DNA of 64,000 nucleotides from Bacillota bacterium (GTDB lineage: Bacteria; Bacillota; UBA4882; UBA10575): assembly GCA_036678685.1 (NCBI GenBank), contig JAZIHH010000001.1, positions 81,614 to 145,613 of the forward strand, given 5' to 3'. Positions 36,628 to 49,844 of the stretch are shown here, piece after piece. Every line of letters begins with the position of its first letter. The first letter of the stretch is position 1. The notes under the pieces are model-generated. The model saw nothing but the letters and a program-made list of their open reading frames with translations. It was not told the DNA's origin and did not search any database. The translations under genes were made by a program, and so were the position numbers.

Positions 36628-37047
36628 TTACCGGGTAAGATATCTCCCGGCCAGACACCCGACGACACTGCCGGGGATACTTAATAAGACACAGACAACA
36701 CTTTTTTGCACCGCCAGAAGTTGTAGCCAACCGGTCTCCCGGACCAGGCCGCAGAAGGCGGGGAGAAGAATAACCAGCAGACAAAGGATCCCCGCGAGAA
36801 AAAGGGAAAAGAAGGTGATTTTTAAAGCCTTGGGGGTGGAAGAAGAAAAAACTCCCGTGACCAAACCGGACAGCAGCCCGCCGGCAACAGGTAACAAGCC
36901 GGTTATATTTTGAAAAAAACCGCCCCATAAATACCCGGGTAATACCGAGATGACAAAGAGGTTTCCGGCGATGACACCGGCGGCGGCCGCCAAAAAAAGG
37001 GACGGAAGGCTCCTCTTCTGCCGGTTCTTCCAGGGAAAAAACTTCAT
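36628..37047 (-). CDS. hypothetical 4-TM membrane protein, last gene of the ABC operon
   Basis: 139 aa, glycine-rich and hydrophobic. Its start overlaps the upstream stop by 4 nt. Confidence 0.6.
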   Translation of the reverse strand: MKFFPWKNRQKRSLPSLFLAAAAGVIAGNLFVISVLPGYLWGGFFQNITGLLPVAGGLLSGLVTGVFSSSTPKALKITFFSLFLAGILCLLVILLPAFCGLVRETGWLQLLAVQKSVVCVLLSIPGSVVGCLAGRYLTR

Positions 37048-37535
37048 GGCCCCTCTTCCACCTTGGAAAAAGTATGTCTCTTGAGAAATGAGTCTTTTAC
37101 GTATCCCGGAATTTCAAAATGACCAAACAACTCCACCCTCCAATGGTCAACCTCCGGACGCCCGTTCGGATCCCGGGCGGGAAGGGGAATCCGGACCGTC
37201 TCTGTGAAACCGCCGGCCGCACTGAAGGCCGGCGGATCCATCAGCCAGTCATAATTTTTGGCCCCCCGGTATTGACCGTCGGCAAAAACCACCACCCGTA
37301 AATAAGGCAGCCGGATCTCCAGCGGGGTCGCGGAGGTGAAAGCGACTGTAAACTCCAACTCCCGGCCGATCCGGCAGTCTTCGCTGACCTGCACGGTAAA
37401 GCTGTGCAACGCCTTGCTGACTTTCAGGTAATTTCCGGCCGTGGAAAAAAGCATGGCCAGCGAAGATAGCAAACCGGCCAGTAAGAAGATTTCCTTTGAG
37501 GCCCAAAAACCGCCTTTCATCCGCCGGTTCACCAT
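37044..37535 (-). CDS. hypothetical N-terminally anchored protein (beta-sandwich-like ectodomain)
   Basis: 163 aa with one TM helix followed by a beta-rich domain. It starts 3 nt after the ABC ATPase stop. Confidence 0.6.
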   Translation of the reverse strand: MVNRRMKGGFWASKEIFLLAGLLSSLAMLFSTAGNYLKVSKALHSFTVQVSEDCRIGRELEFTVAFTSATPLEIRLPYLRVVVFADGQYRGAKNYDWLMDPPAFSAAGGFTETVRIPLPARDPNGRPEVDHWRVELFGHFEIPGYVKDSFLKRHTFSKVEEGP

Positions 37536-37538
37536 CCC

Positions 37539-38537
37539 TCAGGCGCCGGGAAAATGGCACAAAACCTCATGCCCGGCGCCGGTTTTGACCACTTCCGGTT
37601 CTTTTTCCCGGCAAATCTCCACCGCCCGCGGACACCGCGGGTGCAGACGGCAGCCGGAAGGGATCTCCGCGGCGCTGGTGATTTCCCCTTTCATGCCCGG
37701 ATCGAGCCGGCGTTTTTCCGGGTTAGGAACCAAGACCGCCCGGATTAATGCCTGGGTATAGGGATGCATGGGGTTTTTAATGACCTCATCAACCGGGCCT
37801 TGCTCCACAATTTTCCCCAAATACATTACGGCGACGCGGTCACAAATATGCCGCGCGGTGGCCAGATCGTGGGTGATGTATAAAAAACTGACCCCGCGTT
37901 CCCTGGTTAAATTGAGCATCAGGTTCAGGATTCCACCGCGGATCGAAACGTCAAGCATGGAAACGGGTTCATCGGCCACGATAAACTCGGGGTTCAAGAT
38001 TAAAGCCCGGGCTATGGCCGCCCGTTGCCGCTGCCCGCCCGATAATTCATGGGGGTAACGGCCGGTATATTCCTCCACCGGTGTTAGATCCACTTCTTCC
38101 AATACTTTATATACCAATTCTTTTCTTTCCTTTTCCGCGGGGGCAACCCCCTGAATAAGCAACGGCTCGGCTACGATATCAAAGATGTTCATCCGCGGGT
38201 TCATCGCGTCATAGGGATCCTGAAAAACAATCTGGATCTTGCGCCGGAACGGTTTCATCTCCTGTTCGGTAAGAGCGGTAATATCCTCGCCCTGATAAAA
38301 GATCCGGCCGCCCGTGGGTTCCAGCAGTTTGATCATCACACGGCCGGTGGTGGTTTTCCCGGACCCGGATTCTCCAACCAAACCCAGGATTTCACCGGCT
38401 TTGATCTGCAGGGATATACCGTCTATTGCTTTCAGGATCGGTTTCCGCTTCCCTTTCCACCGCCCGAGCAGGGTTTGGCGTAAAGGAAAATGCTTGACCA
38501 AATTTTCAACGGCCATGACTACCTGCTTATCCTTCAT
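37539..38537 (-). CDS. Opp/Dpp-type ABC transporter ATP-binding protein (OppF-like)
   Basis: Trimmed to the ATG at 38537, which forms an ATGA overlap with the upstream stop. Motifs are GESGSGKTT, LSGGQRQR, and a C-terminal oligopeptide-ABC Cys motif CRLHPRCP. Confidence 0.9.
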   Translation of the reverse strand: MKDKQVVMAVENLVKHFPLRQTLLGRWKGKRKPILKAIDGISLQIKAGEILGLVGESGSGKTTTGRVMIKLLEPTGGRIFYQGEDITALTEQEMKPFRRKIQIVFQDPYDAMNPRMNIFDIVAEPLLIQGVAPAEKERKELVYKVLEEVDLTPVEEYTGRYPHELSGGQRQRAAIARALILNPEFIVADEPVSMLDVSIRGGILNLMLNLTRERGVSFLYITHDLATARHICDRVAVMYLGKIVEQGPVDEVIKNPMHPYTQALIRAVLVPNPEKRRLDPGMKGEITSAAEIPSGCRLHPRCPRAVEICREKEPEVVKTGAGHEVLCHFPGA

Positions 38538-39529
38538 TGTACCGCCTCCCATTCCAAGGCCCCGGCTTCCTCCGTCCGGTGACAAGCCACTACCCGGTTG
38601 CTCCCCGGCGTCACCGGTTTTAGCACCGGCTCCAACCGGCGGCAGGTTTCCACCGCCAACGGGCACCGGGGATGAAACCGGCAACCGGCAGGCGGTTCCA
38701 GCAGATTGGGAGCATAGCCGGGAATTGTTTTGATCGGCGAACGTTCGGCCGTAATATCCGGAAAAGCTTTTAAAAGACCCCTGGTATAGGGATGACGGGG
38801 TTCCTTATAAATCTCCACCGCTTCCCCGTATTCAACCAGTTTGCCGGCGTACATGACAGCGATCTCGTCACAAGTCTGGGCGATCACCGAAAGGTCGTGA
38901 CTGATCAGGATCATGGCCAGGCCGAATTTCTTTCTCAGGTTTTCCACGGCGGATAGAACCTGGGCCTGAACCATAACATCAAGGGCGGTGGTGGGTTCGT
39001 CGGCAATAACCAGGGTCGGATGACAGGCTAAAGCCATGGCGATCACCACCCGCTGTTTCATCCCGCCGCTGAACTCATGGGGATAATCATGGTAGCGGCC
39101 GGGATCAATCCCTACCATCGCCAAGAGTTCTTTCGTCCGGGCCACCGCCTCCTCTTTCGTGGTTTCCCCGGTGTTGACAATGGCTTCGGCAATCTGATCG
39201 CCGATGCGCAGCACTGGATTTAAGGCATTCATTGCGCCCTGGAATATAATGGATATCTTCTTCCAGCGTATATTCTTCCGGAATTCTTCTTCGCTCAGGG
39301 CCAGGATATCCACCCCGTCAAAAAAGATGGACCCGCCGGCGATCCGGCCGTTGGCCGGCAACAATCTAAGCAGGGTAGTAGCCATACTGGATTTTCCGCA
39401 CCCGGATTCACCGGCCAGCCCTAAAGCCCGGCCCGGTTCCAGGCGGAAACTGACATCGTCAACGGCTCTAACCTCTCCTCTTAATGTTTTATAATACATC
39501 TTCAGATTTTTTACTTCCAACAAGGCCAT
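38534..39529 (-). CDS. Opp/Dpp-type ABC transporter ATP-binding protein (OppD-like)
   Basis: 331 aa with GESGCGKSS, FSGGMKQR and CRFHPRCP. Confidence 0.9.
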   Translation of the reverse strand: MALLEVKNLKMYYKTLRGEVRAVDDVSFRLEPGRALGLAGESGCGKSSMATTLLRLLPANGRIAGGSIFFDGVDILALSEEEFRKNIRWKKISIIFQGAMNALNPVLRIGDQIAEAIVNTGETTKEEAVARTKELLAMVGIDPGRYHDYPHEFSGGMKQRVVIAMALACHPTLVIADEPTTALDVMVQAQVLSAVENLRKKFGLAMILISHDLSVIAQTCDEIAVMYAGKLVEYGEAVEIYKEPRHPYTRGLLKAFPDITAERSPIKTIPGYAPNLLEPPAGCRFHPRCPLAVETCRRLEPVLKPVTPGSNRVVACHRTEEAGALEWEAVQ

Positions 39530-39530
39530 A

Positions 39531-40931
39531 TCACGTTCTCTCCCTGTGCTTGGGATTTAAAATATCATCCACCGTATTGCCGATTAAAACAAAGGACAAA
39601 CTAAGCAAGGTGATCGAGAGTCCCGGCGGTAAAATCCACCACCAGGCCAACTCGGTAAAAGCGCCAAATCCCCTGGCGTTATGGAGCATTCTTCCCCACG
39701 TGGCGGTCATGGGATCGCCAAGACCCAGGAAACTTAAGGTCGCTTCATAAATGATCGCCACCGGAATCAACAACACCATGGAAGCGAAAACCAGGGGAAG
39801 TACATTGGGCAGGATATGCCGTAACATGATATAAACGTCGCTGGCCCCGGAAGCTCTCGCCACTTCGACAAAACTCCGTTCTTTTAAGGAAAGGGTTTGC
39901 GAGCGCACGATCCGGGCCGGTCCCATCCAGGTAAAGACGGCGACCAGAATCACAATGTTCCAGACACTCTTCCCCAAAAGCCCGGCCAGGATGATCAAAA
40001 TAGGCAAGGTTGGGATCGAAAGCATGACATCGGCCACCCGCATGAGAAACTCGTCCACCACCCCGCGAAGGTAACCGCTTAAAATCCCTACGCCTGTACC
40101 GATTACTACGGCGATGAAAGCGCTTAAGACACCGATCATCAAGGAGATCCGGGTGCCGTAAACCAGTTGGGACCAGAGATCGGACCCCAGGTGGTCCGCG
40201 CCTAACACCCCATGCAGGCGTCCGAGGATACGTAAGTTCAAATTCTGAACATCAATCCGTCCTTTTCCCGGCCCCAACCCGTCACCGGCAAAGGCCGCCG
40301 ACAGCTGCAGCCTGTACTCGCCGCTACCGGTGAAAATCTCGGTGGCCACCTCGGCAAAGGGACTCAATTGCAACCGGCGTTTAAGCATTTGGTCCCGGGA
40401 GTCGATGCGGACCGGGAGCCAGCTCCGGCTGCCTGTATATTCCCCGGACCACAGCTCAAAAACCTTTCCTTCCGGATTGATAATGCTTAAGGCAAGACGG
40501 CCGGTAAGATTTTCCGGCAGTTCCGGCTTAACCTGCATAGTCAAAATAAAGGTGCGCGGGGACTTCTGTTCATACAAAAACGCCTGTTCCAAAAGGATCT
40601 TCTCCTCTCCCCGCCCCTTTTCCTCGAGGAGAAAAGTGATAGTACTGTTCTCTTCCTCTTTGTGAAAAGTCGTCTTGATTCCCGGCCCGCCGGGGGTTTC
40701 CCACTCTTCCCTTGTGGTCATCAAGTCGACGGTGGTCGGCATCTCCCGGTATTTGGGGAGAATCCGCATCCAGACCGGCCGGGCCATCCGGTCCGCCAGG
40801 TACCGGTCATGTTGAGGATCATAGGAGGTGAGAAGCGGGGCAAAAACCGCAACTAACAAAAAGAACAAAAAGATAAAAAGGCCGGTCATTCCCTGCGGGC
40901 TTCGCCGGTAACGTTGCCAAAATTCTTTCAT
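39531..40931 (-). CDS. Opp/Dpp-type ABC permease (OppC-like) with a ~195-aa extracytoplasmic insertion after TM1
   Basis: 466 aa. It has TM1, then a long hydrophilic segment (residues ~42-238), then the canonical LGADHLGSDLWSQLVYGTRISL and permease core. Confidence 0.85.
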   Translation of the reverse strand: MKEFWQRYRRSPQGMTGLFIFLFFLLVAVFAPLLTSYDPQHDRYLADRMARPVWMRILPKYREMPTTVDLMTTREEWETPGGPGIKTTFHKEEENSTITFLLEEKGRGEEKILLEQAFLYEQKSPRTFILTMQVKPELPENLTGRLALSIINPEGKVFELWSGEYTGSRSWLPVRIDSRDQMLKRRLQLSPFAEVATEIFTGSGEYRLQLSAAFAGDGLGPGKGRIDVQNLNLRILGRLHGVLGADHLGSDLWSQLVYGTRISLMIGVLSAFIAVVIGTGVGILSGYLRGVVDEFLMRVADVMLSIPTLPILIILAGLLGKSVWNIVILVAVFTWMGPARIVRSQTLSLKERSFVEVARASGASDVYIMLRHILPNVLPLVFASMVLLIPVAIIYEATLSFLGLGDPMTATWGRMLHNARGFGAFTELAWWWILPPGLSITLLSLSFVLIGNTVDDILNPKHRERT

Positions 40932-41923
40932 CCCCTGTCACCTCCCTCGCCCACGCGGATCCGTGGGTCAACCCACCCGTAGGTAAGGTCGGCCATAAAA
41001 TTGCAAATCAAAACGGCCAGGGCAATCAAGTAAAAAGCACCTTGGGCCGCCGGATAATCCTGTTTCAAAACGGCATCCAGCAGATACCGTCCAATCCCGT
41101 ACCAGGAGAAAATGGTTTCCGTAACCACCGCGCCGCTGATCACGGACGGGAGTTGGAGGAAAAACAGGGTGACAATCGGCGGCAGGATGCTCCGGAAGGC
41201 ATGTCCGTAAAGAACCCGGTTTTTGGTTAACCCTTTGGCCTTGGCCGTGACAATATAATCCTGGGAAAGGGCGTCCAGCATGGCGTTTCTGGTGTAAAGC
41301 GCCCAGTAGCCGATATTAATAATTACCAGGCTGGTAACAGGTAAAATCAAGTGATAAATCCGGTCCAGGAGCAACGCCAAACCGCCCGGCGGGGGGGGTA
41401 CACTCATGGTCCCCCGGATGGGAAAGATGGGAAGGTAATATCCGAAGGCAAGCAACAACAGAAGTTGTAAAAAAAAGGCCGGTACCGCATAAGCAAAGAG
41501 TCCCGAACCGGTGACCAGGGCTTCCAGAAAAGACCCACGGCGCGAAGCGGCGAATACGCCGGTGATGATCCCCGTCCCCATGGTGATGAAGAGGGCCAGC
41601 CCTAAGAGGAGCAAAGAATTGGGGAGCCGGTCCATTATTTCTTGTTTCACCGGCAGCCTGGTGGAGAAAGAGTAACCGAAGTCAAAACGGAGCAGGTTGC
41701 GCATATACAACAGATACTGTTTTTCCAGGGGCTCATCCAGGCCGAACTGTTCCCGCAACAACAACTTGGCTTCCGGGGTCAGCTTCGGGTCCATAATGCT
41801 TCGTACCGGATCCCCCGGCATCAGCCGGAAGATTACAAAATTCAAGGAGAGGATGATAAAGAGGACGATAATCGTATAAATGGTTCTCCGCAGGATGTAG
41901 CTTCCGTAGCCCAAACCTTTCAC
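40928..41923 (-). CDS. Opp/Dpp-type ABC permease (OppB-like)
   Basis: 331 aa, starting ILRRTIYTIIVLFIILSLNFVIFRLMPGDP..., with an EAA-loop region. Confidence 0.9.
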   Translation of the reverse strand: MKGLGYGSYILRRTIYTIIVLFIILSLNFVIFRLMPGDPVRSIMDPKLTPEAKLLLREQFGLDEPLEKQYLLYMRNLLRFDFGYSFSTRLPVKQEIMDRLPNSLLLLGLALFITMGTGIITGVFAASRRGSFLEALVTGSGLFAYAVPAFFLQLLLLLAFGYYLPIFPIRGTMSVPPPPGGLALLLDRIYHLILPVTSLVIINIGYWALYTRNAMLDALSQDYIVTAKAKGLTKNRVLYGHAFRSILPPIVTLFFLQLPSVISGAVVTETIFSWYGIGRYLLDAVLKQDYPAAQGAFYLIALAVLICNFMADLTYGWVDPRIRVGEGGDRG

Positions 41924-42006
41924 CTCGCAAATAAGCGCCGCTGCGCCCCTTTAATGCGCAGCGGCGCAGCGGCGTTCGTCAACTTCCCTTCCTGTAATTT
42001 TCCTTC

Positions 42007-43689
42007 CTATTTCTTATCGTACCAGTAATCTTCAAACCGGACCAGGCGCACGTATTCACCGGGCACATATTCATCGAAGACATAAGGTCCGGTTCCGATC
42101 AACTGGGTCAGGCCCTCAACTTCCGGGTGGGGTTCGAGCCAGCACTGGAATTGCTGATAATCGTCGACCTTTTCGTAGATGTGCTTGGGAATCTGCGGCA
42201 GGTCGCTAATCTTAATCAAGTACCAGTAACTGATCTTGTCAAAGTAAACCTCCAGGGTGTACGGATCCGGTACATTGGTCCTGACCACATCCTGAACGTC
42301 ACTGTAATAAAGGGGTATCTTGTTGTCTTTGATGAATTTAATGGCGAAGGCCACATCTTCCGCGGTAAATTCGTGCCCGTCATGCCACTTGACCCCTTTC
42401 CGGAGCTTGAAGATGAGCTTCGTAGCCTCGCGGCCCGGCTCCGGTTCCCAGGTCTCAACCTTCCACTCCGTGGCCAGCCAGGGCACATTCTCCAGCGTCT
42501 CCGGATCGACTTCGATCAGGGGTTCCATCGCCCGGAAGAAGACTTCCGCCGCATAAGCACTGTTGTTGGTGAGGAAATTCAACGACTGGGGCTCTTCCGG
42601 CAACAGCCAGCGGATCTCCTCGCCCTCAAGAGGCCGGATCCCGATTTTCGTCCAGTTATTCCTGTACTGGGCGGCTCCGTAGCCGAGCATCGGCACATAG
42701 CCCGTTACTTTGTCGGTACGGAAAGCGTCCATGTACGGACGGGAGTACAAGGGGATATACGGCAATTCCTCGGCCAGGATCTGTTGGGCCTTGGAAGCAT
42801 ATTCCCGCGCCGTCTCTTCGTCCGGAGCGTAATAAATTCCTTCCAGCAGTTCATCCAGTTCCGGATTACGGATCCCGGGGTAATTGTAGCCGCCCTCTAC
42901 ATCCTGGGAGGAATGGAAGAAGTCATACAGGAAAGTGGGGATCCGTCCCAGACTCCAGGCGAGGGCATACAGGTCGAAATCATGCATATCGAGCCTGTCC
43001 AGCATGACCGGGAAATCCAAAGGTTCGTTTTTGATCGGAATGCCGATGCTTTGCGCCGCTTCCGCAATAATCTTGCCCAACTCGGCGGAGGTGGGCGCCA
43101 CTTCATAGGTGGGCGTCATAAAGATCATCTCCCGCAACGGTTTACCGGTCGCGGGGTTAATCCGGATACCCGTCGCCTCGTCCAAGACATAACCGGCCTC
43201 GTCCAGTATGGCTTGGGCCCGTTCCGGATCGTAGGCAAAAACCGGCGCCGTGTCGTCATGGTAAGGAGAAGACGGGGGAACAAAATGGGCCAGGGGGAGC
43301 ATGTAACCCTCAAACAAGGAATTGATAATCTCCTCCCTGTTCACCATATGGGCAATGGCCTGCCGTAAAACTTTGGCGTTTAGCGGGTCACGCCGCATGT
43401 TTATGCCCACATAAAAAAAGTGGAAGCCCAAATCCATCGTGATCTCAATATTTTCTTGATCCTTCAAGGCATTAATATCCGCCGCCCTGACCAGACCGGG
43501 ATAAATATGAATATCACCGCGTTGAATCGCGATCAACTGGGCTTCGGTATCCTTGATAATCGGCATCAGGATCACCCGGGCTTTTGTTTCCCGCTCTGCC
43601 GCGGGGCGGAAAAAGGCGAAAAAGACCGCGGCCGCTATGATAAGAACGGCCAACACAATACAGGCAATAAGTAACCCCTTCTTTTTCAA
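42007..43689 (-). CDS. family-5 (Opp/Dpp/Nik type) solute-binding protein with a circularly permuted domain order
   Basis: TTG start with an AAGGAGG RBS. There is an N-terminal hydrophobic anchor. The canonical N-terminal signature ([19 protein letters not shown] ... [26 protein letters not shown]) lies at the C-terminus of the ORF. Confidence 0.85.
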   Translation of the reverse strand: [560 protein letters not shown]

Positions 43690-44072
43690 GGCATTAACCT
43701 CCTTGCATATTAATTGATTTAACCCCGGTAACTTATAATAGCCTAGCTTATAAAAGCGTGTAATAGTGGAAAATTAATGTTTAATTAATGTTTGCTTTCC
43801 ACCCCCTTTTTTTAATAATTCCGGGTAATATTGGCAAGAAAATAAAATCTCCTTTCATTATTCGCCGGTGGTTGTTACTTTCCTGCAAAAAAATTATAAC
43901 TTATCAAGCCATAAACGTCATACTTATATGTGCAAGGTTGGGTGGAGCATTGAAAAAGCCGCAACGTTCCTGGGAAAAACTCGCGTGGGGCAGTCCTCCG
44001 CTACGGGCACGGGAAAGGATGACGGGAAGCAAGGAACGCCTCCCCGGGGCAAACGATGATTAACCTCCTTCG

Positions 44073-44700: not shown

Positions 44701-45576
44701 TTAACCGGGTACGGGCAAACCCCAGAAGGCGGTGGGCAAAAGAAGAAGCAGCAGACTGCCGGCGAAAATCAGCAGGTGCTCCCATCGCCAGGGAAGAAGG
44801 GAGGAAGCGAGCAAAAAACGGCGGTAATGCGTTAACACTACTATTTCTTGGGCGATATCCCCGGTCGGCGAAAAGGCAAGAGTATAAAGGGTATCCAGCT
44901 TCCCCGTCACTTCACGGCATCCGGTCTCCGCCGCTTTCCGGAGCCGGGCCTGGAAGCGCAGGAGAGGCAGGAAAAAAAAGATCAGAATCAAGAGGGCCGC
45001 ACTCCGACAGTAAAAAGACCAATCAAAAATGTAATAGACATTTAATGCAAAAAGTCCCAGCAAGATGAGGAAGATAAAATAAACGGTCAGCTTGAGATGG
45101 GCAGCCAATCCTCTTTCCGCCGCGTAAAATCTTTGCCCGGGCGAAGAGAGATCATAACCGAACGGGTGCGGCTTAAAAAGAAGTTCGTAAAGGATCCGGA
45201 CGGCGAATTCAAGGATAATCCCGGAAAAAACTGCGGCAACCAGAAAATCAATCATAAACAGGCCGGCCAGGTGCCACTGGTCGACCGTTGGCCGCGCCCA
45301 AAAAAGAACCGCCCGTCCGGCAAAGACCGTGCCAAAACCGGCAACCAAAACTTTTGGGTTCCGGCAGGCGGGGAAGAAATAATACCTGCCGCCGTAGACC
45401 AGAAGAAAAAAAAGAAACCGTAAACCGTAATCCCAGGGAAAATGGGATAAAAATAAAAGCGGGTTCAGACAGGAGCGGGCCCATAAAGCCCAGATCTGTA
45501 AGAGCCCCAACAGACAAAGGGCCAACCGCTCCTTTTTGCCGGGAGAAAAAGAAAAAATAAAAACCCCCTCCTTCAA
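44701..45576 (-). CDS. hypothetical polytopic membrane protein
   Basis: 291 aa with about 8 hydrophobic helices. No family recognised. Confidence 0.55.
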   Translation of the reverse strand: MKEGVFIFSFSPGKKERLALCLLGLLQIWALWARSCLNPLLFLSHFPWDYGLRFLFFLLVYGGRYYFFPACRNPKVLVAGFGTVFAGRAVLFWARPTVDQWHLAGLFMIDFLVAAVFSGIILEFAVRILYELLFKPHPFGYDLSSPGQRFYAAERGLAAHLKLTVYFIFLILLGLFALNVYYIFDWSFYCRSAALLILIFFFLPLLRFQARLRKAAETGCREVTGKLDTLYTLAFSPTGDIAQEIVVLTHYRRFLLASSLLPWRWEHLLIFAGSLLLLLLPTAFWGLPVPG

Positions 45577-45629: not shown

Positions 45630-48041
45630 TCAGCGGCGGACAACGGCCTTAAATTCGGTCGCCAGTTTCGCAATCATTTCTTCCAGTTTCTCATTGACCT
45701 CCTCGTCCTGCAAGGTACGATCCATCATCCGGAAGACGAGGGAAAAAGCGAGGCTGCGGTGGCCGGGCGGTATTTGTCCACCGCTGTAGACATCAAAGAG
45801 ATCCACTTTTTCCAGCACTTCGCCGCCGGTCTCAACCAAAAGGCAGACGATTTCTTCCACCCGTACTTGTTCCGGCGCCACCACCGCCAGATCCCGCAAA
45901 ACCGGCGGGTATTTGGGCAAAGGTTTAACATTTATGGTTTCCTTCTCCGCCGCCGTCCAGAGGGCTTCCACATCCAGTTCAAAGAGGACAACCGGGGAAG
46001 CGAGGTCATACCGTTCTTTGACATCCGGATGAACTTCACCGACCACCCCGGCTTTCCTGCCGTTCAGTTCCAAACAGGCCGTCCGTCCCGGGTGCAGGGC
46101 AGGATGTTCATCCCGCCGCCAAACCGCCCCCGGAATCCGCAAATCGGTCAAGAGCGATTCCACCAAACCCTTGCCATCGTAAAAATCCACGGGGGCGTCC
46201 GGCTGGTTCCAGCCTCTTTCCGCGGCCCGGCCCATTAATCCACCGGCCAAATGAAGATTTTCCCCGGGGAGTTGTTTTTCTTCACCGGACGGTAAATAAA
46301 CCCTTGCCAGCTCATAAATGCTCAGATCGTCCTGTCTCCGTTTGGCATTGTAGCTTAAAACATCCAAGATCCCGCCGAGCAAAGTGGTACGCATCATAGA
46401 ATATTCTTCGCTTAGCGGAACCTTTAACCGGACAGTATTCCGTAAGGGATGCGCGCCTGATAAATTCAGGCGGTCAAAGACTTTCTCCCCGTGAAAACTA
46501 TAGGTCACCACTTCGGATAAGCCATAACCCTGCATTAAAATCCGTAATTTTTTCTCAAATTGTTGCCGCGGAGTTAAAGCGCCGGGCCGCTTCGCCGCCG
46601 GATAGGTGGTGGGTATCTTGTCATACCCGTGAATTCTGGCCACTTCCTCGGCCAGATCCGCTTCGTATTCAATGTCCCGGCGGTAGGAAGGAACGGTTAC
46701 GGTTACCCGGTTTTCCGGCGCTTCTTCAATTCCGAACTGAAGACGCCGGAGGATTTCTTTTATATAACCGGGGTCAAGGGCGGTACCGAGCAGAGAATTG
46801 ATTTTATCCGGACGGAGACTGATTTTTTTCGCCGGAACCGGCACGGGGTAATAGTCGATCATCCCTTGGCAGACCTTTCCGATCCCCAGCTTGTTCAGGA
46901 GAAAAGCCGCGCGGTTGAGGCCGGCTTTTACTCCCTCCGGGTCGATCCCTTTTCCGAAACGCAGGGCCGCTTCCGACCTGATGGCCTGGGCCTGGGCTGT
47001 CCGCCGGATACTGACCGGGGAAAAATAGGCGGCTTCCAGAAAAACCCTCCGGGTATTGGCCGTCACTTCACTGGACCCTCCCCCCATTACCCCGGCAATC
47101 CCTTGGGCTTTTTCGGCATCGGCAATCACCAGCTGGTCCGGTTCCAGTTTTCTTTCCACATCATCCAGGGTGACAAGGGTTTCACCGGGCCGGGCCCGGC
47201 GGACGATAATTTTCGGCCCTGCCAGCCGGTCCAAATCAAAGGCGTGCAGGGGCTGGTTCAATTCCCACATCACATAATTGGTGAGATCCACCACATTGTT
47301 GACCGGCCGCATCCCCGCAGCCAGCAACCGGGTTTTTAACCAAAGCGGGGATTCGCCAACCTCTAGATCAAAGAAAACCCTGCCCATGTAACGCGGACAA
47401 AGATCCGGATCCTGGAGTTCCACGCTGATAAAATCCTCCATTTTTTCTTTGCTTTCTTCGCGAACCTCAAGGGCGGGCGGGTTTAACGGACAACCGGTCA
47501 GGGCGGCGACCTCCCGGGCCACGCCGAGCATCCCGTAGCAATCCGCCCGGTTGGGTGTCAACTCCAGGACCAAGACCGGCGCATTAAGCTCCAGGATCTC
47601 GATAAAATCATCTTCCAGGCGGGTTTGGGCGGGTAACACCATAATCCCGCCGGCCTGGCGGCTTAAACCCAACTCCTCTTCGGAACAGAGCATCCCCTGG
47701 GAAAGGACGCCCTTAAAAACGGTCTCTTCAATCAACCGCCCATCGGGCAGGCGGGTACCGGCCAACGCCACCGGTACTTTATCCCCCGTCCGCAGATTTC
47801 GTGCGGCCGTAATAACAGTGATCTCCCCGTCCGACAAGCGTACGCGACAGACCAACAACTTCTCCGTTTCCGGGTGGGGTTTTAACTCCGTCACCTCGCC
47901 CACACGAAGGCTCCGGTAAGGGGCGCCGGGATCAACCAGTTCCTCGACGGCAATCCCGGCCATGGTCAATTTCTCCGCCAGTTCCTCCGGTTCTAATTCC
48001 ACCGGAACATATTCCCGTAACCAATTATAAGGAACGCGCAT
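45630..48041 (-). CDS. pheT: phenylalanine--tRNA ligase beta subunit
   Basis: 803 aa, MRVPYNWLREYV..., with B3/4, B5 and FDX-ACB domains. Confidence 0.97.
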   Translation of the reverse strand: MRVPYNWLREYVPVELEPEELAEKLTMAGIAVEELVDPGAPYRSLRVGEVTELKPHPETEKLLVCRVRLSDGEITVITAARNLRTGDKVPVALAGTRLPDGRLIEETVFKGVLSQGMLCSEEELGLSRQAGGIMVLPAQTRLEDDFIEILELNAPVLVLELTPNRADCYGMLGVAREVAALTGCPLNPPALEVREESKEKMEDFISVELQDPDLCPRYMGRVFFDLEVGESPLWLKTRLLAAGMRPVNNVVDLTNYVMWELNQPLHAFDLDRLAGPKIIVRRARPGETLVTLDDVERKLEPDQLVIADAEKAQGIAGVMGGGSSEVTANTRRVFLEAAYFSPVSIRRTAQAQAIRSEAALRFGKGIDPEGVKAGLNRAAFLLNKLGIGKVCQGMIDYYPVPVPAKKISLRPDKINSLLGTALDPGYIKEILRRLQFGIEEAPENRVTVTVPSYRRDIEYEADLAEEVARIHGYDKIPTTYPAAKRPGALTPRQQFEKKLRILMQGYGLSEVVTYSFHGEKVFDRLNLSGAHPLRNTVRLKVPLSEEYSMMRTTLLGGILDVLSYNAKRRQDDLSIYELARVYLPSGEEKQLPGENLHLAGGLMGRAAERGWNQPDAPVDFYDGKGLVESLLTDLRIPGAVWRRDEHPALHPGRTACLELNGRKAGVVGEVHPDVKERYDLASPVVLFELDVEALWTAAEKETINVKPLPKYPPVLRDLAVVAPEQVRVEEIVCLLVETGGEVLEKVDLFDVYSGGQIPPGHRSLAFSLVFRMMDRTLQDEEVNEKLEEMIAKLATEFKAVVRR

Positions 48042-49207: not shown

Positions 49208-49445
49208 ATAAAAAAAACTTTCATCCGGTAAGGGACGAAAGTTTCTTCCGCGGTACCACCCTTTTTAGCCTTTGAAGGCTCTCCTTAATAACACGAAACC
49301 GAAGCGTCTTCGGCTCGTCTCCGGTAACGGCGGAGTTCCGGCACAACCTACTGCCAGTTCAGTCGGCGGCTCCAGAGTGAACTTCTACCGGACCGGCGGG
49401 GAATGCTCGCACCTGGCCATTCCTCTCTGTACCGCTTAACCCGGT
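49208..49445 (-). promoter_or_regulatory. T-box riboswitch leader (Phe, UUC specifier) controlling pheST
   Basis: All on the minus strand. The T-box core AAAAAGGGTGGTACCGCG lies at 49250..49266. The terminator AAACTTTC-loop-GAAAGTTT plus T8 lies at 49210..49246. Stem I has AGAGAGG and a GGTGCGA distal loop. The specifier loop GAAG-TTC-A has its codon at 49379..49381. Confidence 0.85.
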
Positions 49446-49481
49446 ATACTCTCTCCTTCCTTGCCTTTGCTTTTTATGAAA

Positions 49482-49767: not shown

Positions 49768-49844
49768 TGGTGGGGGAGAGCGGAGTCGAACCGCTGACCT
49801 CTACGATGTCAACGTAGCACTCTAACCAGCTGAGCTACTCCCCC
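49768..49844 (-). tRNA. tRNA-Val (anticodon GAC), CCA encoded
   Basis: The reverse complement GGGGGAGTAGCTCAGCTGGTTAGAGTGCTACGTTGACATCGTAGAGGTCAGCGGTTCGACTCCGCTCTCCCCCACCA folds into a cloverleaf. The 7-bp acceptor, anticodon loop TTGACAT and T-loop TTCGACT are all present. Confidence 0.95.

Follow-up and report, generated by a model that had tools for sequence, protein, structure and literature searches.

Segment order of the binding protein

The stretch of DNA analyzed here (hereafter, the window) comprises 64,000 nucleotides from a Bacillota bacterium (GTDB lineage Bacteria; Bacillota; UBA4882; UBA10575; GenBank assembly GCA_036678685.1, contig JAZIHH010000001.1, positions 81,614 to 145,613 of the forward strand), and the element under study is a gene for a 560-residue solute-binding protein (SBP) of family 5, or cluster C, the class that serves Opp/Dpp-type transporters. 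A preliminary description made from the sequence alone had claimed that this protein is a true circular permutant of its family, and our comparisons to Pfam, to structures in the Protein Data Bank (PDB) and to Escherichia coli DppA each gave two pieces in swapped order, as that claim predicts. The gene and its parts are as follows:

42007..43689, minus strand: permuted family-5 (PF00496) SBP gene, 560 aa, TTG start (open reading frame [ORF], Pfam, PDB and DppA comparison)
43609..43689, minus strand: residues 1-27, a basic N-terminus and a ~22-residue hydrophobic helix, export signal or signal anchor (helix 2-26 in the AlphaFold2 [AF2] model)
42625..43584, minus strand: segment B, residues 36-355, the canonical middle and C-terminal part (DppA precursor 242-520)
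42574..42651, minus strand: residues ~347-372, the ancestral C-terminus fused to the ancestral N-terminus (PDB matches; predicted local distance difference test [pLDDT] 90-93; ratio of nonsynonymous to synonymous substitution [dN/dS] 0.12)
42010..42624, minus strand: segment A, residues 356-560, the canonical N-terminal part (DppA precursor ~29-236)

A Shine-Dalgarno sequence, AAGGAGG, lies 7 nt before the TTG start, and the export signal expected of an SBP is present as the hydrophobic helix at residues 2-26, in both the sequence and the AF2 model. Segment B contains the last part of lobe 1, the whole of lobe 2 and both hinge crossings, while segment A carries the PROSITE-like W-x-V... signature and ends with the residues ...FEDYWYDKK.

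The ORF matched PF00496 (SBP_bac_5) with a score of 238 bits (E = 2e-70; cut-off, 32.4), and the match was split into two stretches with the C-terminal part of the profile before the N-terminal part. In the better of these, residues 39-262 aligned to positions 150-365 of the 368-position profile, i.e., the protein begins with what the profile has at its end. When all PDB sequences were searched with phmmer, 104 family-5 matches were returned, and wherever two stretches were given their order was swapped; e.g., in Bacillus subtilis AppA (1xoc), query residues 427-557 matched chain residues 84-209 while query residues 42-316 matched 219-488. Pairwise alignment to E. coli K-12 DppA by BLASTP likewise recovered both segments in swapped order, with query 40-332 matching DppA 242-520 (E = 5e-19) and query 391-559 matching DppA 64-236 (E = 2.5e-10), and phmmer (HMMER) agreed with this result. 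The two segments do not overlap, they jointly cover the parent family, and neither match can be put down to chance, with per-segment E-values of 1e-9 to 1e-26. The colinear order of family-5 SBPs was not recovered in the comparisons to Pfam, to the PDB members or to DppA, and none of the NCBIfam models matched the protein at its cut-off.

The same alignments locate the two breakpoints. The new termini map to the DppA loop FDGYWGT/KPQID/TLVFSIT (precursor 236/242, mature 208/214), which is the DGYWG junction named in the preliminary description, and the DppA motifs quoted there are all present in the real E. coli K-12 protein. The old termini are joined between query residue ~347 and residues ~358-372, a bracket that includes the fusion point proposed earlier (~355-362). 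On one side of it, query 346 corresponds to residue 523 of the 525-residue OppA chain 8are; on the other, query ~358-373 corresponds to canonical residues ~10-25, with query 373 equivalent to residue 25 of 4pft.

For comparisons across the family, the canonical order was written as A-B1-B2. Segment A comprises the N-terminal portion of lobe 1 together with the extra domain, B1 takes in what remains of lobe 1 and the first half of lobe 2, and B2 covers the second half of lobe 2 along with the C-terminal stretch that returns to lobe 1. With A at query 356-560, B1 at 38-187 and B2 at 188-352, the 560-aa protein has the order B1-B2-A (hereafter, window-type). These results confirmed the protein as a genuine circular permutant of an Opp/Dpp-type binding protein.

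Conservation and distribution

Among 5.8 billion proteins searched, 238 relatives were retrieved, and segments A and B were located in the best 120 of them. Among these, the B-then-A order was found in P0001-P0106, P0111 and P0113, without exception down to ~29% identity, and the earliest proteins with the canonical A-then-B order appeared only at 28-32% identity. Orthologues therefore do share the permutation, a point raised in the preliminary description, since more than 100 clusters at 90% identity have window-type order. When 1.84 billion representatives at 50% identity were searched exhaustively with a profile, 94,011 family-5 proteins were detected, and ~120 of the best 150 showed the window-type order, mostly as a single stretch spanning profile positions ~1-563. 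Since this order still dominates at the end of the matches listed, the count of at least 120 clusters is a lower bound.

The bacterial sources of window-type SBPs are Bacillota, Limnochordia/Limnochordales and Clostridia metagenome-assembled genomes (MAGs), and the archaeal sources are Geothermarchaeales, Thermoproteota, Bathyarchaeia, Methanomethylicia/Verstraetearchaeota and one Promethearchaeota MAG. The permuted order defines a large bacterial and archaeal clade that is apparently undescribed. One window-type SBP in the cluster of P0080 is labelled "Sphingobacteriaceae bacterium" (a MAG) and shares its 90% cluster with a Limnochordales protein; the label probably stems from mistaken binning or taxonomy in the public entry. 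Three further window-type SBPs (P0244, P0257 and P0273; 969-1133 aa) have segment A interrupted by an insertion of ~170-230 aa, so that profile positions ~1-66 and ~66-202 lie far apart.

Compared to the 86%-identical orthologue at locus L090, dN/dS was 0.12 overall, 0.09 in segment B, 0.14 in segment A and 0.12 across the junction. The family spans phyla at 30-86% identity with 19 invariant columns in a 32-sequence alignment, and the identical order and junction recur in hundreds of independently assembled contigs (NCBI, JGI, ENA and Logan), some of them 0.4-1.7 Mb long. The arrangement is inherited and under purifying selection. Considering that relatives share the order and that selection extends to the junction, an assembly join or dead fusion is excluded.

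Predicted structure and N-terminal anchoring

An AF2 model built from the 32-sequence family alignment had a mean pLDDT of 91.7 and a predicted template modeling score (pTM) of 0.84, with pLDDT at the junction of at least 90. A pTM of 0.84 over 560 residues suggests that segments A and B form a single, well-defined unit. Foldseek, an order-dependent aligner, assigned the model to the family-5 fold (E = 1e-23 to 1e-18) over 290-350 columns with a query TM-score (TMq) of ~0.45, the aligned region being segment B. Since the aligner keeps sequence order, coverage of B only is what a permutant gives. Foldseek matched no PDB chain to the model over its full length, and the clade is therefore without a solved structure.

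In work by Dunten and Mowbray and by Nickitenko from 1995, domain I of DppA is said to consist of mature residues 1-33, 183-262 and 479-507, the extra domain reportedly of 34-182, and lobe 2 of 263-478. With these limits, the cut site mapped onto DppA precedes the first passage of the chain into lobe 2 by ~50 residues, and the hinge crossings fall at query ~88 and ~318, both within the uninterrupted segment 36-355. On that basis, both new termini would belong to lobe 1, as the canonical termini do. In canonical proteins, lobe 1 is made of the N-terminal half and the C-terminal tail and holds both termini, which are adjacent, each leading into or out of a strand of the domain I sheet (PMC10924461). 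The internal junction of the window protein, placed by the PDB matches, coincides with these parental termini, and since they adjoin in space, joining them would be tolerated. Two claims of the preliminary description are not supported by this mapping: a re-routing of the hinge strands, since both crossings would stay within the contiguous segment B, and a move of the membrane tether to the opposite lobe, since the new termini map to lobe 1 as the canonical ones do.

The N-termini of 211 members showed that most bacterial proteins have a cleavable AxA signal peptide and no N-terminal anchor; only the window protein and its 86% relative have the long hydrophobic N-terminal helix. The AxA signal peptide is followed by '...W-E-P-Y-G-P-x-V-D-x-I-I-M-P-I-I', a remnant of the canonical '...Y-W-G-x-K-P-x-l-D-x-i-f' junction. 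A C-terminal extension of more than 60 aa occurs in 101 of the 211 members, and several archaeal ones visibly end in a transmembrane anchor.

Origin of the order and a second permutation

The classical route to a circular permutant is tandem duplication or fusion followed by trimming. We re-ordered 335 proteins to the canonical A, B1, B2, reduced them to 217 sequences of <75% identity and built a neighbor-joining tree with capped distances, i.e., a simple distance tree. All but one (P0306) of the 144 window-type sequences formed a single clan, and the tree required 6 changes of arrangement (bootstraps, 5-9) vs. ~65 with shuffled labels. The tree fits a single old origin of the window-type order. 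The most likely path would be one in-frame fusion of tandem SBP genes with subsequent loss of the outer segments, after which the order would have spread through Bacillota (Limnochordia-like) and several archaeal phyla.

Tandem-duplicated forms, whose existence the preliminary description had raised, were found as in-frame fusions that are plausible intermediates. For example, P0331 (1016 aa) has the order A-B1-B2-A-B1-B2 behind a single lipoprotein signal (lipobox) and carries no further signal peptide. Larger in-frame tandem fusions of family-5 SBPs are P0259, P0266 and P0283, while P0260 is a tandem of two permuted units and P0226 has 7 matched stretches in 4308 aa; these five range from 1844 to 4308 aa.

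We also found a second permutation, of order B2-A-B1, in a 770-aa Geothermarchaeota protein (L009:94-2406, plus strand; P0121) whose chain is opened inside lobe 2. A search with the L009 protein gave 22 clusters of this order and the exhaustive search a further 5, for a total of 27 in archaea and bacteria:

B2-A-B1 members: P0121-P0134, P0136, P0147/148/150/152, P0165, P0207, P0212, P0316, P0332, P0335, P0341, P0359

Some members of this set look bacterial, measure 536-575 aa and terminate precisely at '...EEAGYRWDDEGRI...'. In the tree, B2-A-B1 proteins form several small groups outside the window-type clan. Since A-B1-B2, B1-B2-A and B2-A-B1 were all found, family-5 proteins occur in all three circular orders.

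The transporter operon and candidate ligands

The SBP gene heads a complete, same-strand SBP-OppB-OppC-OppD-OppF operon, i.e., the permease and ATPase partners expected of such a receptor follow it directly. The remaining features of the operon are as follows:

43893..43921, minus strand: sigma-70-like promoter, ATGACG-17-TATAAT, 10/12 (a consensus match only)
41935..41967, minus strand: 12-bp GC-rich hairpin, GCGCCGCTGCGC / GCGCAGCGGCGC, 9-nt loop, then TTATTTG (read from the sequence; unflagged by the scan that gave the promoter match)
40928..41923, minus strand: OppB/DppB-like permease, 331 aa (Pfam: PF19300 and PF00528)
39531..40931, minus strand: OppC/DppC-like permease, 466 aa (Pfam: PF12911 and PF00528)
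40224..40769, minus strand: OppC residues 55-236, an extracytoplasmic insertion of ~182 aa in the loop between transmembrane helices 1 and 2 (TM1-TM2; from alignment to E. coli DppC)
38534..39529, minus strand: OppD-like ATPase, 331 aa (Pfam: ABC_tran and oligo_HPY)
37539..38684, minus strand: OppF-like ATPase, maximal ORF (Pfam: ABC_tran and oligo_HPY)

The true OppF start is probably near 38537, as suggested by the 332-aa orthologue at L090. The hairpin occupies part of the 83 nt that separate the SBP gene from the oppB-like gene and may be a partial terminator or mRNA stabilizer, through which the ratio of SBP to permease could rise. The same five-gene order was found in Limnochordales (L001), a Geothermarchaeales archaeon (L003), the nearest orthologue (L090) and Methanomethylicia (L091), and at L007 the SBP and permease genes are divergently oriented. 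Beyond the transporter, no flanking genes were conserved across the loci compared.

Judging from these partners, the function is most likely the usual one, with ligand held between the lobes, docking on OppBC and triggering of ATP hydrolysis, and the permuted protein probably still works as an ordinary substrate receptor. In DppA, D436 (mature D408) binds the peptide amino group and, together with R383 (mature R355), clamps the peptide termini (PMC12136057, PMC8566422). D436 aligns to Gly248 of the window protein, in a variable family column (S13 G7 D7 N2 T2), and no conserved Arg was found at the R383 position of the family alignment, which is unreliable around that residue. Since the Asp/Arg clamp is not conserved in the family, a standard dipeptide ligand is unlikely. 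The closest solved relative is AppA, a nonapeptide binder, with which the protein shares a 'W-S-L...P...Y-D-x-F-H-S-S-Q...G-x-N-Y' stretch, and Thermotoga oligosaccharide binders rank next. An oligopeptide bound as in AppA, or an oligosaccharide, is thus a possible ligand.

Elsewhere in the window, a T-box leader (119.8 bits) at 49228-49470 (minus strand) lies upstream of the pheS/pheT region, which includes a pheT-like ORF at 45630..48041, and a tRNA gene is located at 49771-49844 (minus strand); no rRNA was found in the 64 kb. A 291-aa multi-pass membrane protein without a Pfam match is encoded at 44701-45576 (minus strand), between a nitroreductase gene and pheT, and a 163-aa ORF, also without a Pfam match, lies just downstream of oppF at 37044-37535 (minus strand). 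At L090, unannotated ORFs of 152 and 138 aa occur at the equivalent place.

Enlarged OppC and alternative explanations

The OppC of the window aligns to E. coli DppC at residues 1-54 (DppC 19-71) and 237-464 (DppC 75-300), so that ~182 residues replace 3 residues (72-74) of DppC between the 'AP.W' and 'LGTD..G.D' motifs. A long OppC with an insertion of ~180-240 aa was encoded at 8 of the 9 window-type loci (window, L090, L001, L003, L007, L008, L011 and L015; in ascending order of length, 466, 469, 477, 483, 491, 495, 509 and 530 aa), while the OppCs of ~44 canonical-order loci measured 264-370 aa with one real exception, L076. Most insertions are homologous across the divide between bacteria and archaea (phmmer E = 1e-24 to 2e-4). 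The exception, in a Thermotogaceae MAG (L076:3701-5614, plus strand), is a 637-aa OppC with a Lys-rich TM1-TM2 insertion of ~340 aa that adjoins a canonical-order SBP and is unrelated in sequence to the window insertion; OppC seems to have acquired a large ectodomain on more than one occasion. The long OppCs of L048, L079 and L087 proved to be artefacts of the longest-ORF rule in high-GC DNA. The ninth window-type operon, from Methanomethylicia (L091), has an OppC of normal length (309 aa), as do two B2-A-B1 loci (298 and 309 aa). A long OppC is therefore ruled out as an obligate partner of the permutation, and the association is strong but not obligate.

The insertion had no Pfam match, its profile found nothing significant in the PDB (the best match was a carbohydrate-binding-module-like [CBM-like] domain at E = 0.039), and a database search with the insertion alone gave no matches. 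It is predicted at low confidence to be β-rich, and a single-sequence AF2 model reached a pLDDT of 47.6. A large extra domain in a permease periplasmic loop is known from MalF, whose P2 loop contacts the binding protein MalE, and MalF P2 may be an analogue of the OppC insertion; it differs in belonging to another permease family, in lying between TM3 and TM4 rather than TM1 and TM2, and in having no sequence similarity. In E. coli DppB, the TM1-TM2 region carries a scoop motif that enters the DppA cleft (PMC12136057), and since the OppC insertion occupies the same TM1-TM2 region, the extra domain could touch the docked receptor.

The alternative that survives best, although we consider it doubtful, takes this association further: the permutation would have co-evolved with the TM1-TM2 domain of OppC, which would contact the re-wired lobe 1 (the new termini or segment A) and thereby modify docking or retention. 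The near-restriction of the enlarged OppC to window-type loci, the normal OppC of the second permutation, the homology of the insertions between bacteria and archaea and their position where the DppB scoop enters the SBP cleft (PMC12136057) all speak for such co-adaptation. However, L091 combines a window-type SBP with a normal OppC, the loci are phylogenetically non-independent so that one subclade could explain the association, and the insertion has neither a significant PDB or Pfam match nor a confident model. It is equally tentative that, in addition to the existence of three circular orders, the window-type order has in most members co-evolved with an OppC domain that grips the re-wired lobe; if true, this would be a previously unrecognized Opp-type docking architecture in Limnochordia-like Bacillota, Thermoproteota, Bathyarchaeia and Asgard archaea.

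A role as a sensor or enzyme that reuses the SBP fold, in place of a transport receptor, appears improbable. SBP folds have been recruited to other roles and the ligand-clamp residues of DppA are not conserved here, but the gene is tightly co-linear with OppBCDF genes in both bacteria and archaea, and the bacterial members carry no additional signalling or catalytic domain. It is more improbable still that the gene is a non-functional relic, in which the 3' part of one SBP gene became fused to the 5' part of the following one and the product decayed. Although the arrangement probably did arise by fusion of tandem genes, dN/dS is low in every part (~0.12), the ORF is intact, carries an export signal and is preceded by a strong ribosome-binding site, the cross-phylum conservation described above and the confident, compact AF2 model do not fit decay, and the gene leads an intact permease/ATPase operon with no other SBP gene adjoining it in the window. 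Conservation, dN/dS and the model together rule out both a pseudogene fusion and an assembly join; the least credible alternative, a mis-join of two SBP gene fragments near 42620, draws on the fact that SBP genes are often tandem paralogues able to confuse assemblers and is dismissed by the recurrence of the order and junction in hundreds of independent contigs and by purifying selection on the junction.

Discussion

We consider it highly probable that the protein is a functional receptor of an Opp/Dpp-type (PepT family) importer and a natural permutant of the cluster-C fold. In this proposal, a short linker (~347-372) would connect the ancestral C- and N-termini, which are neighbors in the lobe-1 sheet, and the chain would be opened in a surface loop of lobe 1 that runs from the '...GYW' strand to the 'KP.lD.i.f' strand. 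Neither the three-dimensional fold nor the two-strand hinge nor the Venus-flytrap mechanism would be altered, so that ligand bound between the lobes, docking on OppB/OppC and ATP hydrolysis by OppD/OppF would proceed as usual.

Several observations weigh against parts of this proposal. The evidence that segment A occupies its canonical position comes from the pTM and pLDDT of the model and from homology. All window-type members derive from MAGs or metagenomes and bear generic public names, and no cultured host was found among the members of the clusters looked up. The neighbor-joining tree is a distance tree on very divergent sequences and leaves one outlier (P0306), and since the tandem fusions are not close relatives of the permuted clade, they show the feasibility of the route only. 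Finally, docking may depart somewhat from the canonical mode, as hinted by the strong but incomplete link to an enlarged OppC (8 of 9 loci).

Canonical cluster-C SBPs (AppA, 1xoc; DppA, 1dpp; NikA; Thermotoga TM1223) are homologous to the window protein in both segments (AppA, 121 bits), work with the same partners (OppB, OppC and OppD/F with oligo_HPY tails) and match the predicted fold of segment B. They differ in having the order A-B1-B2 rather than B1-B2-A and in that the ancestral termini are covalently joined in the permuted protein; DppA differs additionally in its Asp436/Arg383 ligand clamp, which is not conserved in the window-type family. The B2-A-B1 class shares the family-5 fold, the fused ancestral termini and the adjoining OppBCDF genes but, unlike the window-type class, is opened in lobe 2 after the '...EAGY.D.DGDG...' turn, has a normal OppC and lies outside the clan. 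Engineered permutants and permuted halves of maltose- and ribose-binding proteins (PMC9815098, PMC6335823) demonstrate that periplasmic binding protein folds tolerate both new and joined termini; however, these are laboratory constructs of class I/II sugar binders, whereas the window-type proteins are natural, ancient, selected and of cluster C. We found no description of natural permutation in family-5 SBPs in the full-text literature, many subscription papers being outside its reach, and only engineered permutants were described. Together with the absence of a colinear PDB chain by sequence or fold, this bears out the earlier claim of novelty as far as the search extends.

The finding has practical consequences. 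For annotation, permuted members give split profile hits, fail NCBIfam equivalogs and break PROSITE-style position rules; for engineering, they mark permutation sites that nature has already validated and that biosensors built on this scaffold could use. That an enlarged OppC recurs alongside the window-type order also points to testable variation in how SBPs dock on their permeases. Cluster-C SBPs rank among the most abundant and most thoroughly studied receptors in transport, and the ~100 solved structures compared here share one chain order. The two permuted clades show that the fold tolerates opening at no fewer than two specific loops with the ancestral termini joined, which bears on how bilobed binding proteins evolve, i.e., by tandem fusion and then trimming.

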